In this document: piece after piece, positions 1,435-47,289 of the stretch | Layout of the letters: each line of letters starts with the position of its first letter | Position numbering within the stretch: the stretch's first letter is position 1 | Sequence record: MN850605.1 | Reading direction: 5' to 3' (one strand) | Origin: Escherichia phage fjerdesal | DNA: 64,000 bases | Made by a program: the position numbers and the translations under genes | The notes under the pieces: model-generated | The model's input: only the letters and a program-made list of their open reading frames with translations | Database searches by the model: none | Told to the model about the DNA's origin: nothing

Positions 1435-3092
1435 AATATCTTAAGAGCCTCCTTAATTGGGGGCTTTTTAATTTTTATAAAATTTTATCGGTTGTCCCAA
1501 CCTCTGGGTCACCATCATATGTGAATAAAATATCTATCCTTCTTAACAACCTTCTTAATCTTACTCTCTATATAGTTATATAGTACTATATAGTATCTTA
1601 GTAACTATCTAGTGGTCTTAATAGCCCTCTGTATAGCCCTTCTAAATAGCCATCTAAACACTCTTCTAACAAGCCTTCTAAACAACCTATACAATCATCT
1701 TAACCATCTCTCTATATCCTCTTAGAAGCTCCTATACACCTCTTAATCTCTAGGTTAGCTATGTTACTCTCTATAGGTGTTCACTAGGTACTACTAAGCC
1801 TCTATATAGACTGTTTTAACAAACTTAACAGGAATATCTTCACAGACCTTATCTCACAAGGTCTAACACGGTACTAACAAGGTATCTTATAAGCCTGTTA
1901 TTACCTGTATTTTTAAAAGGCTGTATAGGTAATTATTCAGAATCTTAAAATTTTTATAAAATAGGGCTATCAAGTCATTTTTTAGGGTCTTTGAAGGAAC
2001 TGAAAAATATCTGATTAGGATGTATATCTGCTTGGTAGCCCTTAACAGCCCCTTAACACCCCCTTTGCAAAATTTTAAAATATCCTTAACAATCTCTTAA
2101 CAGTTCTCACATCTTCTTAACAACCCTTCAAAGGTCTTAACAGATTCTTAACAGAACTAACAAGGCTGTAACAGTTTTCTAACAAGTGCTGAATAGGCTT
2201 TACAGAATCTTAACAGATGACTAACAAGAGCTAACAAGTTAATTTTAAAGAGTTATTTTGTTAAGATAATTAACAAGTTCCTAACAAGTGTTTAATCTTT
2301 TTAACAAGCTATTAACATGGTCACTATCTCTTGGTCTATAGTTCCCTTTCCCTCTTAGTGATTCTTTAAACATACCTCTTAAAAGCTCTCTATAGCTCTT
2401 TATAAGCTCTTTTAAGTCTCTTCCTAGTAGTTACACCCCAACTATACAGAAAGCTTTTTATAGGGCTTTACAGGAGCTTTTAAGGCTATGTCAAAGGCTC
2501 TTACAAGGCTTTTACATGGTCTTAACAGAGATTTAACAAGGGGCTAACAAGTCTCTAACAAGTGCCTTAAAAGCATAACTATGTAGGGATTGTTAAGAAA
2601 TTGTTAAGAAAATGTTAAGGGGGCTAGCATTTACGTAACTTTTAAGCTACTTTATATCCCCTATAACATACTTTTAAGACACTAACAAGCCCTTTTTAGA
2701 TATTCACAAGATAGCTAACGAGATGATAAAGCTTACACCCTTATAAGATTCTTTTAAGGCTGTAGGAAGCTTTATAAAGAGCTTTTAAGGGTGAGTTAAT
2801 GCAATCCCTTAAGTTAGGTTGATAAGGCTGTTATAGAGCTTTATAGAGCGTTTAAACGGTTGCCCTTCCCTTTCGGGTTATGGGCTTTTATTTAAGTTGA
2901 TTTGATAAGAGATTATAGAGTAGACTATAGAGTTATTGCTTTTAAGGTCTGGTAAGATTCTATCGAATCAGTAGGGTAGATTCTGGAAAGGAAAGGAAAG
3001 GGATTGTATAGAGGTTATTACATAGACGTAAAAAAGCCCCTATGAGAAGGAGCTTTGCAGGTATCTGGGGCTATTTAGCCCCGTTGCGTCGA
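1435..3092. repeat. 1.65 kb ORF-free region densely packed with short YTAACAR motifs (CTTAACAA, CTAACAAG, TGTTAAG) in both orientations; G-poor top strand
   Basis: no ORF of 60 aa or more on either strand; motif recurrence read directly; lies between convergent gene ends. Confidence 0.6.
1447..1469 (+). terminator. hairpin (GCCTCC-TTAATT-GGGGGC) followed by T5
   Basis: seen in sequence directly after the stop at 1434. Confidence 0.45.
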
Positions 3093-14602: not shown

Positions 14603-16969
14603 TTAATCGTAAATTGTAGTCCCTTCTGGAACACACTTCACATCAAAGCCTAAAAACTTACTCACTTCGATAGGTGATACTTTATTCCAATCTAAGTGTG
14701 AAAGCAAGAAGTTTTCTTGTTTTCTTTTTGAAAGATAGTTTGTCAGCTTAATAACCATGCGGTCACCCGCTTTCTTAATCTTTTTGTACAGTTTTGTGTC
14801 ATTATCAAGGCATGACTTCAAATCCTGAAGAACACTGATAGTGTAAGTGTATGCAAACGGTGCAGCCACATACTGAATCTTACCAAACATTGCCTCAACA
14901 GCATCTTCATTCCCTTCTAAGAAGATTGTCTTAATAGTATCCCTTGAATAACAATACCCGCGAGAAATCTTCCTGTTATTAAACGTAAAGTTTCTGGCAA
15001 TAATCCAACTGCTTGTAAGGTCAAGGACACCATTCATATAGATACGTGTCATATATCTGTTATGGTTAATCCAGTGAACATCAGTTAAGCTGTCGTTCAA
15101 GAGTTTCTCATCTACTTCAATCCAATCTTCTGGTATCTTTTTCCAATTTGCTTTTCGGAAAACATAGACTGTCTTACCTGTAACATTAGCAACTGACTTA
15201 GCTACATCTTCTGGAGATGAGCAAAAACATCTACCATCAACTGTGTCACCAACTGCCTTAATATAAAGCTGAGGTTCTTCAATTGTGTCTAAGTCCTCTG
15301 AAACCTCTTTATAGGAAGCTACAGATTCTGCTGGAACAGCTTTCCAGAGTTTTACAACACCTCTCACAGCCTCTTTACGCTGATAATGATGCTCCTTATC
15401 AGACATTTTCACAATCTTTAACAAGCTTTTATCAAGTTTGTGTAGATTGATTAAATCATCTAACTCTTTTTCAGTCGAGAATACAAACACAATACCATTG
15501 TATCTGTGGAACAGGCCTGACTCGTTAGCGTAGTCTCGACATGCACCACGCAAGATTTGATTTCGTCCTACAGTCTTCTCAGTACCGTTTTTATTGCGAC
15601 GGTCATTAATCACGAACAAAAACTGTTCAATTTGGCTTTTACGCATTGCACCAAAGATATTGAACATACTTGCCTCTTGAGTGTAGGAAAGTGCTGTTGC
15701 ACGAATCTTACTCTCTAAAGAGTTGAACTTGACATAAGCAACTGGGTCATAAAGGTAATCTACTTTAGGGATGTTGTTTCCGTTCCTATCAACCTTAATA
15801 TTACCTTTACCGTCACGTTCATAAATGACTGAGCCGTCTTCTGCGTAGATAATCCCACGACGAATGTTTAGCAATTCTTCTTCCAGAGAATCAAGCTTAA
15901 CGCCTCCCCACTCTAGCTTTGGACACACAGCATTAAACATCTCTCGTGAGTTCAAACGTAACTCAGCATAAGCCTGTGCAGCATCCATGAGTGTAGGTTG
16001 GCTATTAACTTTCTTGATAACATCCTTTGTAATGGCTTCAGTTATCTTTTTAGTAGCCTCAATGATAACATTTTTTGTCGTGTCATTCATCTGCAATGCT
16101 TCACGAGAAGCTGCAATAGCAACTGAACCAATAGGCATGTAGATGTTTACAAGGTCTACGCTCCTACGGAAAAATTCTGGCAATACTTTGAAGAAATCAT
16201 CACCAAGTAATGCTTCCATATTAACAGGGTAGGCAATGTTACCCATCACCACATTAAACTCTGTCCTGTTACCACTAGAACGCCAGCTTTGCTTATGAAT
16301 CATGGCATCATAAACACCTTCTTCACGGGCAATGACGTTCATATCTGCTAATACATCGTCGTACTCAATATTACTTTCTGGTTTTACAGTGAAGTATGAG
16401 TACACATTCCCAGCTTCTTCAAAGAACTTTGAGATACGGTGGTCAGCAACTGCCACACGTACAGCTAAACCATTAGGTTCTTTTGTTGGGTTAGTTGTCA
16501 GCTTAGTTACTTGAGGGATACCATTCTCAAGATAAACAGAGTACTTATTAACAACACCGTCAACATAGCTAGATACTGTGAATGACTGAGCAATTGCAAA
16601 TGGTGACTTTGAGCCGATACCCATTGCACCAATGTAGTCATTAGAGTCATTCTTCGTAGAAGCTCCATAGTTTAGGTACAAACTCATAACTTTATCATGA
16701 GTCAATCCAGTTCCAAAATCACGAACTTCGAAGTAAGGCTCAAAACGAGTAGGTAAATGCACATGGAATGGAATGTTCTCTTTTCCAGCTTCTTTCTGAG
16801 CATCTACTGCGTTACATGACAGTTCACGAATCACTGCCCTTTCTTTAAAGGTGTATACACCAGAACTCAAAAGGCTGAACATCTCAGGTGTCATTGTAAT
16901 CTGTGCTTGAGACGTCTCTAAAGAAGTTGAACTCTTAATCACTTCTGCGTGGTCATTTACCATGCGCAT
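14603..16969 (-). CDS. rIIA: rIIA-like protein (GHKL/HATPase-type N-terminal domain)
   Basis: AVIRELSCNAVDA, VRDFGTGL and NDYIGAMGIGSKSPF match the T4 rIIA N-terminal region as recalled. Confidence 0.85.
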   Translation of the reverse strand: MRMVNDHAEVIKSSTSLETSQAQITMTPEMFSLLSSGVYTFKERAVIRELSCNAVDAQKEAGKENIPFHVHLPTRFEPYFEVRDFGTGLTHDKVMSLYLNYGASTKNDSNDYIGAMGIGSKSPFAIAQSFTVSSYVDGVVNKYSVYLENGIPQVTKLTTNPTKEPNGLAVRVAVADHRISKFFEEAGNVYSYFTVKPESNIEYDDVLADMNVIAREEGVYDAMIHKQSWRSSGNRTEFNVVMGNIAYPVNMEALLGDDFFKVLPEFFRRSVDLVNIYMPIGSVAIAASREALQMNDTTKNVIIEATKKITEAITKDVIKKVNSQPTLMDAAQAYAELRLNSREMFNAVCPKLEWGGVKLDSLEEELLNIRRGIIYAEDGSVIYERDGKGNIKVDRNGNNIPKVDYLYDPVAYVKFNSLESKIRATALSYTQEASMFNIFGAMRKSQIEQFLFVINDRRNKNGTEKTVGRNQILRGACRDYANESGLFHRYNGIVFVFSTEKELDDLINLHKLDKSLLKIVKMSDKEHHYQRKEAVRGVVKLWKAVPAESVASYKEVSEDLDTIEEPQLYIKAVGDTVDGRCFCSSPEDVAKSVANVTGKTVYVFRKANWKKIPEDWIEVDEKLLNDSLTDVHWINHNRYMTRIYMNGVLDLTSSWIIARNFTFNNRKISRGYCYSRDTIKTIFLEGNEDAVEAMFGKIQYVAAPFAYTYTISVLQDLKSCLDNDTKLYKKIKKAGDRMVIKLTNYLSKRKQENFLLSHLDWNKVSPIEVSKFLGFDVKCVPEGTTIYD

Positions 16970-44859: not shown

Positions 44860-45101
44860 TGAAAAGAGAGATTATCAAGTTTACAAATACGGGTAGTTGT
44901 TGTCCGGTTCATGATAAGTACCCTAGCAACACTTACAAGAATAGGCGCTCTATCAAGAAGAGGTCACTCTTTATTAAGAAAGAGCACAGGCATGTGAGGC
45001 GGGTTGTTAAGCAAAATCTTCATAAAACTTTATTAGAAAGTTGTTGACATAGAAAATTTGGTGAGTATACTGAGCAGCATAAACCAACGGGTACTCACCA
45101 G

Positions 45102-45400
45102 CATCACTTAAGAGTCTTCTAAGAGGGTTTTTAAGTGATGTCCGGTAGGGCGAGGTCGGGTTTGGTATTGTCCGGTATGGTCGGGTAAAGTACAGTACGG
45201 CAAGGTAAAGTAGGGTATGGGTAGTTAATCGGAGCTACATTAAAATTCGATTGCATCACTTAAGAGCCTTTAAATTATACTCGATAGGTTATCTCATAGG
45301 GTTTTTAAGTAATGTTTGGCAAGGCAAGGTGCAGCCCGGTCGGGTAAGGCGCGGTGAGGTATGGTAAAGTGTGGGTGGATGGTAGTAGCCACGTTAAAAA
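45102..45400. repeat. composite repeat copy 1: palindromic hairpin (45102-45140), 10-bp-phased GGT decamer array (45141-45225), 53-bp conserved core (45214-45266), degenerate hairpin, second GGT array (45315-45385)
   Basis: seen in sequence; core matches 46623-46675 with one mismatch. Confidence 0.6.
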
Positions 45401-45464
45401 TCTACCAAGTTTCTAAAGAGTCTTCTGTTGAGGGTTCTTTACAAACAACTTAACAATCAACTAA

Positions 45465-46070
<606 letters not shown>

Positions 46071-46072
46071 TT

Positions 46073-46513
46073 ATGAATACAAAAGCATTAGCAGCAAAGT
46101 TTAGTTACGGTGATACTGTATCACATTCTGAGATGGACACCTTCTTAGGTATTGTGAAGCCAACTTATCAAGGTGACATTGTTAAGTACGAAGATGAAAT
46201 GAAGGCTTATGCACTTACACGTCTAAACCGACTTGAGAAGTTTATTGAAAAGCTTCTTAAAGAAGAGAAGATTTATCTGGTTGCTTCAATGGGTGTTGGT
46301 TATCGTGTGGTTGAACCTAAGCATCAAGCAACTATTGCAAAACGTAAAATGTCTGGTAAGATTGGTCGTGCTTTAAAGCAAGCCACTCAAGCGATTGAGA
46401 ATGTGAACACTATGGCACTTAGTCATCAAGAACGTTCACGACTGATTGAACAGCAAAACCATTTAGCTGCTATGAAAGCTAACATTAACAAGCAACGTAG
46501 AAAACCTTTCTAA
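46073..46513 (+). CDS. hypothetical protein
   Basis: ORF. Confidence 0.45.
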   Translation: MNTKALAAKFSYGDTVSHSEMDTFLGIVKPTYQGDIVKYEDEMKAYALTRLNRLEKFIEKLLKEEKIYLVASMGVGYRVVEPKHQATIAKRKMSGKIGRALKQATQAIENVNTMALSHQERSRLIEQQNHLAAMKANINKQRRKPF

Positions 46514-46524
46514 GTTGACTAGGA

Positions 46525-46540
46525 AGCCTCTTCGGAGGCT
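46525..46540 (+). terminator. hairpin AGCCTC-TTCG-GAGGCT followed by CCTTTTT
   Basis: seen in sequence. Confidence 0.6.
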
Positions 46541-46576
46541 CCTTTTTAAAAGGTCTTTAAACAGGGTCTTTTAATA

Positions 46577-46857
46577 AGGTAGGATAGGGTGGTGTATGGT
46601 TTGGTAAGGTTGTGTAAGGTAAGGTATGGGTAGTTAATCGGAGCTACATTAAAATTCGATTACATCACTTAAGAGTCTTCTAAGAGGATTTTTAAGTGAT
46701 GCTCTGTCGGGTTTGGTCGGGTTTGGTAGGGTTTGGTAGGGTGTGGCTCGGTATGGTGTGGTTTGGTGTGGTAAGGTATGGAAGGATGGCAGTAGCCTTA
46801 TAAAAAATCTGCCAAATAAGCTATAAAATCTGTTGACAAGTCAGGTGTTATAGCTTA
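46577..46857. repeat. composite repeat copy 2: GGT decamer array (46577-46632), conserved core (46623-46675), hairpin CATCACTTAA...TTAAGTGATG (46663-46701), second GGT array (46702-46795), then palindrome AAGCTATAA...TTATAGCTT around a TTGACA box
   Basis: seen in sequence. Confidence 0.6.
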
Positions 46858-46905
46858 TTTTTATACTCAATGTAATACAAAATTTAATATAACTTTGAGG
46901 TCATT

Positions 46906-47289
46906 ATGAAAAAGATTTTATTAGCTGCTGCAATGGTTATGGCAATGAATTTACCAGTCAATGCAACAGAACTCCCAAATGTGGACTTATCAGGTGTTCC
47001 AGAAGACACTTGCCAGATTGTTAAAGGTGTTGCTCTAGCTAATGGTGAGCTACTTAAACCAATCTCTGAAGAGTCTTTGACAGAGATGACTGATAAGGTA
47101 ACTGACTATCAATATCGCGTTCTTGCAGAGTATTTCCTGCAATCTGCAAACATTAAAGAGAAACACCATGATGATATTGATGTACAGGCGATGCTCAACC
47201 ACCGTATCCAGTTTAAAGAAGATTTGATGCAAAAAGCTATGTACGGTGTTGAGTATTTCTTAGAAAACAGAAGCTGCACAGGTATTTGA
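46906..47289 (+). CDS. secreted protein of unknown function
   Basis: N-terminal signal peptide MKKILLAAAMVMAMNLPVNA. Confidence 0.45.
   Translation: MKKILLAAAMVMAMNLPVNATELPNVDLSGVPEDTCQIVKGVALANGELLKPISEESLTEMTDKVTDYQYRVLAEYFLQSANIKEKHHDDIDVQAMLNHRIQFKEDLMQKAMYGVEYFLENRSCTGI

Follow-up and report, generated by a model that had tools for sequence, protein, structure and literature searches.

What is encoded by the repeat-rich stretch at positions 45102–45400 of Escherichia phage fjerdesal? The window analysed here, meaning the whole stretch of 64,000 nt from sequence record MN850605.1, belongs to a Felix O1-like myovirus (Felixounavirus), and its segment 44900–46900 matches 230 phage records, the top one being Escherichia phage allfine with 99.4% identity. 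A sequence-only reading had taken the repeats for duplex DNA in which GGT motifs at exact 10-bp phasing occupy one face of the helix, suggesting cooperative protein binding or intrinsic curvature. The repeats are a genuine feature, far from random and important for function, and here we replace the DNA-phasing interpretation with one of RNA guides. Positions 45102–45406 almost certainly belong to a type II VIPR locus and comprise two of its four vrRNA genes, a level of confidence that includes the silencing scheme proposed below.

According to the preprint that describes it, VIPR is a phage-borne, CRISPR-like system of RNA-guided DNA silencing composed of Vipr (a minimal RAMP), Vap and vrRNAs (bioRxiv 10.64898/2026.04.26.720920). 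A vrRNA has 9–16 YNNGG repeats, with GGY conserved and NN hypervariable, and an invariant 3′ tail, which in the SUSP1 clade is a pseudoknot; in the model phage SUSP1, RNAs of approximately 100 nt that co-purify with Vipr were sequenced (bioRxiv 10.64898/2026.04.26.720920). The mechanism of VIPR is taken from this one preprint, which is not peer reviewed. The locus is an orthologue of a system that was already described in June 2026, and the feature is thereby explained.

Repeat unit and RNA structures

The periodicity of GGT was measured in 60-nt windows. Period-5 power, which can be at most 12, reached 7.0, 6.4 and 11.0 in 45105–45243, 45294–45402 and 46549–46819, respectively. The rest of the 64-kb window stayed at or below 3.75, which bears out the statement that the unit is unique there apart from a second copy, and 50 shuffled windows did not exceed 4.1. 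Tandem Repeats Finder returned a period-5 unit, GGTTT. The period-10 power of GGT is an unremarkable 4.0; the fundamental period is 5 nt rather than exactly 10 bp, and the "decamers" are paired pentamers. Because a 5-bp period on B-DNA alternates between helical faces, the argument that GGT lies on one face fails.

The repeat consists of Y-N-N-G-G pentamers with GGY constant and NN hypervariable. Across 77 unique tracts, which hold 8–19 units (mode 12), the position matrix gives Y (T 0.89, C 0.11), N, N, G 0.82 and G 0.98, with information contents of 1.49, 0.09, 0.12, 1.16 and 1.85 bits; any of the four bases, not just C, can follow GGT. Comparison of the window with Felix O1, ASO1B, AYO145A and 16 IMG/VR relatives defined a module composed of a 5′ hairpin (H or K), a pentamer tract and a 32-nt tail, and the predicted vrRNAs of the window, whose tracts have 16, 12, 11 and 16 units (vrRNA1 to vrRNA4), are 87–112 nt long (Table 1). 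Copy 1 (45102–45406) contains two tandem vrRNA genes and copy 2 (46575–46813) two more, with vipr and vap between the pairs. The two copies are units of the same kind, as had been supposed, and their 53-nt core (45214–45266 and 46623–46675) differs by exactly one mismatch. The sequence-only reading had also proposed a check of conservation in related phages; when this was run, the modules recurred in the relatives in varying number.

Table 1 Features of the VIPR locus in the window.
Feature	Position	Strand	Remarks
Putative sigma-70-like early promoter, TTGACA-16-TATACT	45044–45071	+	11/12 consensus; kept in 20/20 related loci
5′ hairpin H before vrRNA1 (palindrome of the sequence-only reading)	45102–45140	+	−20.8 kcal/mol, z = −4.9
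vrRNA1 tract, 16 YNNGG units	45141–45220	+	NN = CC AG GA CG TT AT CC AT CG AA AC AC AA AA AG AT
vrRNA1 3′ tail, 32-nt H-type pseudoknot	45221–45252	+	GTAG TT AATCGGA G CTAC ATTAAAA TTCGATT
H′, long variant of H with insertion of ~22 nt, before vrRNA2	45254–45314	+	−17.8 kcal/mol, z = −3.8
vrRNA2 tract, 12 YNNGG units	45315–45374	+	
vrRNA2 3′ tail pseudoknot	45375–45406	+	GTGG AT GGTAG TAG CCAC GTTAAAAAT CTACC
Small G-U-rich hairpin between vrRNA2 and vipr ribosome-binding site	45414–45441	+	−10.2 kcal/mol, z = −2.7
vipr, 195 aa, RAMP (Cas7/Csm3/Cmr4-like)	45483–46070	+	Predicted fold
vap (vipr-accessory protein), 146 aa	46073–46513	+	
Intrinsic terminator 3′ of vap	46525–46550	+	
5′ hairpin K before vrRNA3	46546–46574	+	−6.1 kcal/mol; conserved in related loci
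vrRNA3	46575–46661	+	11 YNNGG units 46575–46629; pseudoknot tail 46630–46661
Second hairpin H copy, before vrRNA4	46663–46701	+	
vrRNA4	46702–46813	+	16 YNNGG units 46702–46781; tail 46782–46813
vrRNA4 tail pseudoknot sequence	46782–46813	+	AAGG AT GGCAG TAG CCTT ATAAAAAAT CTGCC

The palindrome arms described earlier, CATCACTTAA at 45102–45111 and TTAAGTGATG at 45131–45140, are present and form hairpin H. Folded as RNA over its full 39 nt, H reaches −20.8 kcal/mol on the + strand and −15.6 kcal/mol on the − strand, the better folding on the + strand being due to G-U pairs. All four tracts are preceded by such a G-U-rich, strand-specific hairpin, the 3′ arm of which is in register with the pentamers. 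The predicted degenerate copy of the palindrome exists as well, in the form of H′ with its insertion, and the second array follows directly; the H′ variant also occurs in three relatives (L012, L013 and L017). Hairpins H, H′ and K, which the accessible part of the preprint does not describe (bioRxiv 10.64898/2026.04.26.720920), may be processing or boundary signals.

The tails comprise several sequence types that share one H-type pseudoknot, with a helix 1 of 4 bp, a helix 2 of 5–7 bp and an A-rich third loop. Pairing is found in 92% of cells (100% for helix 1 and 87% for helix 2), and 9 of the 11 pairs show changes on both sides. None of 500 shuffles attained the observed values, and slid controls were 27–38% paired. 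Searches of Rfam gave no match at gathering thresholds for the whole window, and only chance-level matches at E-values up to 10 for 44950–46950.

These structures bear on the possibility that the locus is a set of duplex DNA sites with 10-bp helical phasing, which either curve the molecule or let a regulator bind cooperatively along one face, and which thereby control the downstream genes. Such sites would agree with the 10-nt spacing of GGT, which corresponds to every second pentamer, and with the position of the unit between a promoter and genes. Against them stand the true period of 5 nt with its alternating faces, hairpins that favour the + strand through G-U pairs, a covarying pseudoknot, hypervariable NN dinucleotides that are informative, since a specific gapped code aligns them with foreign genes (see below), and the homologous RNAs sequenced in SUSP1 (bioRxiv 10.64898/2026.04.26.720920). 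Taken together, the 5-nt period, the strand-specific G-U structures, the covarying pseudoknot and the foreign-gene matches argue for an RNA product and not a DNA binding site, and regulation of the downstream genes through duplex DNA is very improbable. What survives of the earlier proposal is the idea of a multi-subunit protein bound periodically to a phased motif, on RNA instead of DNA.

There is likewise very little chance that the stretch is a G-rich, transcribed replication origin, in which an R-loop or G-quadruplex forms and the displaced strand offers T7-type primase sites (NGGTC pentamers). The primase sites of T7 are GGGTC, TGGTC and GTGTC. The non-template strand is G-rich and lies 3′ of a strong promoter, and the phage has T7-like polymerase and primase-helicase genes. 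However, neither a strict 5-nt phase nor a conserved pseudoknot nor hypervariable NN is required of an origin; the base after GGT can be any of the four and not C; the number of arrays is variable, and some viable phages have lost them along with the cassette; and the content of NN is accounted for by the targeting code. Several further candidates were considered and rejected, namely G-quadruplex arrays, pairing with tRNA CCA ends, Shine-Dalgarno mimicry, RfaH ops-like or pause-site arrays and Chi-like sites, all of which fail to explain NN, the pseudoknot and the RAMP gene together.

The vipr–vap cassette

The sequence-only reading had placed the unit directly upstream of rightward genes starting at 45468. 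Genes do follow closely downstream, with the true ATG at 45483, and the supposed functional tie to them was correct: they are the vipr and vap genes of the VIPR system. Vipr (45483–46070) is 96.9% identical to Vipr of SUSP1, and Vap (46073–46513) is 99.3% identical to the SUSP1 protein encoded at the same position. The AlphaFold2 model of Vipr, built from a 45-sequence alignment, has a pLDDT of 95.3, and by this predicted fold Vipr is a minimal RAMP/Cas7-like protein. The locus thus has an adjacent vipr gene for a RAMP homologue of approximately 20 kDa and, directly 3′ of it, a vap gene for a protein of 146 aa; type II Vap is a predicted DNA-binding protein in the preprint (bioRxiv 10.64898/2026.04.26.720920). 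Pfam searches with Vipr, Vap and the adjoining ORFs gave no family above threshold.

The identity of the neighbouring protein also bears on whether the transcript could be a protein sponge or attenuator, in which a ring-shaped RNA-binding protein of the TRAP kind is titrated or recruited and NN is uninformative. The TRAP ring binds 11 (G/U)AG repeats. The tracts share this layout, with a fixed triplet and a 2-nt spacer repeated 11–16 times. However, target information resides in NN, the neighbouring gene encodes a RAMP rather than a TRAP-like ring and tracts range from 8 to 19 units, leaving the sponge a negligible probability.

Two other stretches were noted. The ligase stop codon is separated from the promoter by approximately 170 bp (44860–45030), which contain a 62-codon, GTG-start ORF that has no Pfam match; in Felix O1 the promoter is located directly 3′ of the ligase stop, without these approximately 170 bp. 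Elsewhere in the window, positions 1568–3000 form approximately 1.4 kb dense in short tandem repeats of period 10–12 (of the CTATATAGTA, TCTAAATAGCCA and CTTAACAG types, among others), probably another non-coding regulatory region.

Satellite targets and the one-base skip

In the preprint, NN pairs with dsDNA, one unpaired skip base separating successive dinucleotides (xNNxNN...); the skip base falls mostly on the codon wobble position, a PAM is not needed, and target binding represses transcription (bioRxiv 10.64898/2026.04.26.720920). The majority of SUSP1-clade guides are reported there to be aimed at a phage satellite in E. coli genomes (bioRxiv 10.64898/2026.04.26.720920).

A BLAST search of copy 2 against E. 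coli genomes gave only two weak matches, which pointed to a satellite island. In E. coli 2013C-3492 this island (L139 5330–16050; variants L140–L148) spans approximately 11 kb with recombinase genes at both ends, and contains tape-measure, baseplate, HNH and sometimes Dam methylase genes in addition to a 2-kb non-coding region. Of 5,426 complete E. coli genomes, 567 have related islands, which occupy several integration sites. The island has a vrRNA of its own (L139 14968–15074) with a covarying pseudoknot tail, and the satellites have no Vipr or Vap. It is presumably the satellite of the preprint (bioRxiv 10.64898/2026.04.26.720920).

The code was tested by ungapped comparison of 51 unique clade guides with 10 satellite variants at skips of 0–3, with unit-shuffled guides as the null. 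Matches of at least 80% of NN positions that also exceeded every shuffle were obtained for 25 of the 51 guides, and at skip 1 only, not at 0, 2 or 3. Where matches fell within annotated genes, the skip base was at codon position 3 in 15 of 17. The published 1-nt-skip code is thereby reproduced independently from raw sequence.

Among the guides of the window, vrRNA1 alone has a clear target in the 10 satellites. It matches L139 13316–13363 at 27 of 32 positions (shuffled maximum 22/32), with the skip base on the wobble position, in a gene of 185 aa that is the first of the satellite's main operon; the satellite sequence with the predicted vrRNA1 target is ACCGAGGGAACGTTATATGCCAACCAGAAAGAGCACAAAGAACACTAT. 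The best satellite score of vrRNA2, 19/24, is inside the shuffled range of these 10 satellites, and that of vrRNA3, 19/22, is borderline, barely over the highest shuffled score. Also borderline is vrRNA4, with 24/32 in a recombinase gene, in wobble phase and with near-perfect central units; this score exceeds all shuffles and is under the 0.8 cut-off. As the 10 satellites are a small sample of the 567, absent targets are not evidence against function.

No self-targeting was detected, the best skip-1 scores of the four guides within the 64-kb window being 0.62–0.73, inside the shuffled range. With its YNNGG tracts, pseudoknot tails, wobble-phased targets at skip 1 and lack of self-targeting, the locus agrees with VIPR. 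Separately, the guide of one cassette-less relative (L019) matches 14875–14910 of the window at 20/24, in a minus-strand gene of 788 aa with the skip base at codon position 1; this match is probably chance, because the skip base is off the wobble position and 77 guides were tested.

In the silencing scheme that we propose, the early promoter at 45044 would transcribe H, vrRNA1, H′, vrRNA2 and probably vipr–vap, and the precursor would be cut into separate vrRNAs at or near the hairpins. The promoter of the window, the steps of processing and the ends of its RNAs are predictions from sequence. Vipr subunits would coat each vrRNA, with the GGY triplets held and the NN pairs exposed; the preprint likewise proposes that Vipr coats the vrRNA and that GGY is the non-pairing, protein-held part (bioRxiv 10.64898/2026.04.26.720920). 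The complexes would then bind and silence satellite genes in the E. coli chromosome, vrRNA1 being aimed at the first gene of the main operon, and the satellite would otherwise exploit the phage.

Orphan guides and relation to known systems

Approximately half of the sequenced Felixounaviruses, including Felix O1, are without vipr and vap and retain one conserved orphan vrRNA. GenBank holds 230 records with the region and approximately 117 with a close Vipr (Salmonella phages, 75 vs 17). In Felix O1 the ligase gene and the gene after it are separated by a single module without a cassette, and the junction there is the product expected from recombination between two H hairpins. Neither tblastn nor a profile search found Vipr or Vap in the complete Felix O1 genome, the one vipr-less phage for which the whole-genome Vipr profile search is complete, and the list of Vipr-bearing contigs includes none of six cassette-less IMG/VR genomes. 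The guides of cassette-less genomes match satellites about as often as others do.

The orphan vrRNA is promoter-driven (Felix O1 L001 3097–3196; also L018 and L175–L179). Its NN series, AT AC AA GA GA CT (CT or TT) AT GT CT, is conserved in at least 40 vipr-less phages besides Felix O1, while scaffold positions drift. The series matches codons ~157–166 of the relatives' vipr at 20 of 22 positions, and the skip base lies at the wobble position; the mismatch is confined to the tail-proximal unit and the other 10 units are perfect. In 252 kb of Felixounavirus sequence, 1 of 3,000 shuffles scored 20. The guide variants CT and TT match the vipr leucine alleles CTG and TTG, respectively. At the corresponding site of the window's vipr (45950–45982), a Lys-to-Arg change relative to most alleles lowers the match by two, to 18/22, and may be an escape mutation.

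An orphan vrRNA with a guide that matches the relatives' vipr is a new observation, and its sequence is suggestive of a guide-only locus aimed at the effector gene of a rival. In a mixed infection, the orphan vrRNA would load onto the Vipr of the rival and turn it on the rival's own vipr gene. We put forward only tentatively, as a somewhat doubtful extension, that the vipr–vap cassette, which its own vrRNA repeats flank, is polymorphic for presence or absence, and that vipr-less phages are not simply degenerate but guide-only hijackers of a rival's Vipr, directed against the rival's vipr. If true, this would be an anti-VIPR weapon that needs no effector gene from its own genome.

VIPR, proposed to be ancestral to CRISPR, is a recently described class of RNA-guided DNA recognition. 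The identification of guide RNAs explains a conspicuous and previously unannotated non-coding region in approximately 230 sequenced Felix O1-like phages, many of which are being considered as candidates in therapy or biocontrol; the repeats go unmentioned in the Felix O1 genome paper. New leads are the guide-only loci in effectorless phages and the guide that targets the effector gene itself. Beyond these phages, an exact scan for (GGTNN)6GGT found more than 100 unrelated viral contigs (L020–L138, IMG/VR) with degenerate (GGTNN)n arrays, often several in tandem and with family-specific punctuation (for example, ...GGTAAGGCTA in L022 and L138). A Vipr-like ORF is present in the sequence examined at 40 of the IMG/VR array loci (profile E-values 1e-8 to 1e-66), and others are plain microsatellites.

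The closest known system is the type II VIPR of SUSP1, with which the window shares the vipr–vap pair (97% and 99% identity), YNNGG vrRNAs and their pseudoknot tail types, a position 3′ of the DNA ligase gene, an E. coli phage satellite as target class and the 1-nt-skip, wobble-phased code. The layout differs, with two vrRNAs upstream and two downstream in the window compared with one upstream and three downstream in SUSP1. The guide sequences of the window also differ, and the window has H′ and carries the Lys-to-Arg vipr allele at the Felix O1-type orphan-guide site.

In the class 1 CRISPR systems (Cascade, Csm and Cmr, with a Cas7 backbone), the crRNA has a period of 6 nt with 5 pairing bases, whereas VIPR has 5 nt with 2 pairing bases. 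VIPR is phage-borne, has its guide inside the repeat and is without a repeat-spacer array, Cas1-Cas2 or a PAM; the window has pentamer tracts only, no repeat-spacer array, and one RAMP gene with vap. The (G/U)AG repeats of the Bacillus trp leader, read by TRAP, resemble the tracts in their fixed triplet with a 2–3-nt spacer, repeated approximately 11 times, and in their multi-subunit reader protein. Unlike in VIPR, the TRAP spacers are uninformative, the fold is unrelated and the role is attenuation rather than DNA targeting.

For the orphan vrRNA of Felix O1 type, the best analogue is provided by the orphan mini-CRISPR arrays of archaeal viruses, which turn host Cas proteins against rival viruses. 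Both are guide-only, effectorless and aimed at close relatives. The mini-CRISPR arrays use the Cas proteins of the host, whereas the effector of the orphan vrRNA would come from the rival phage.
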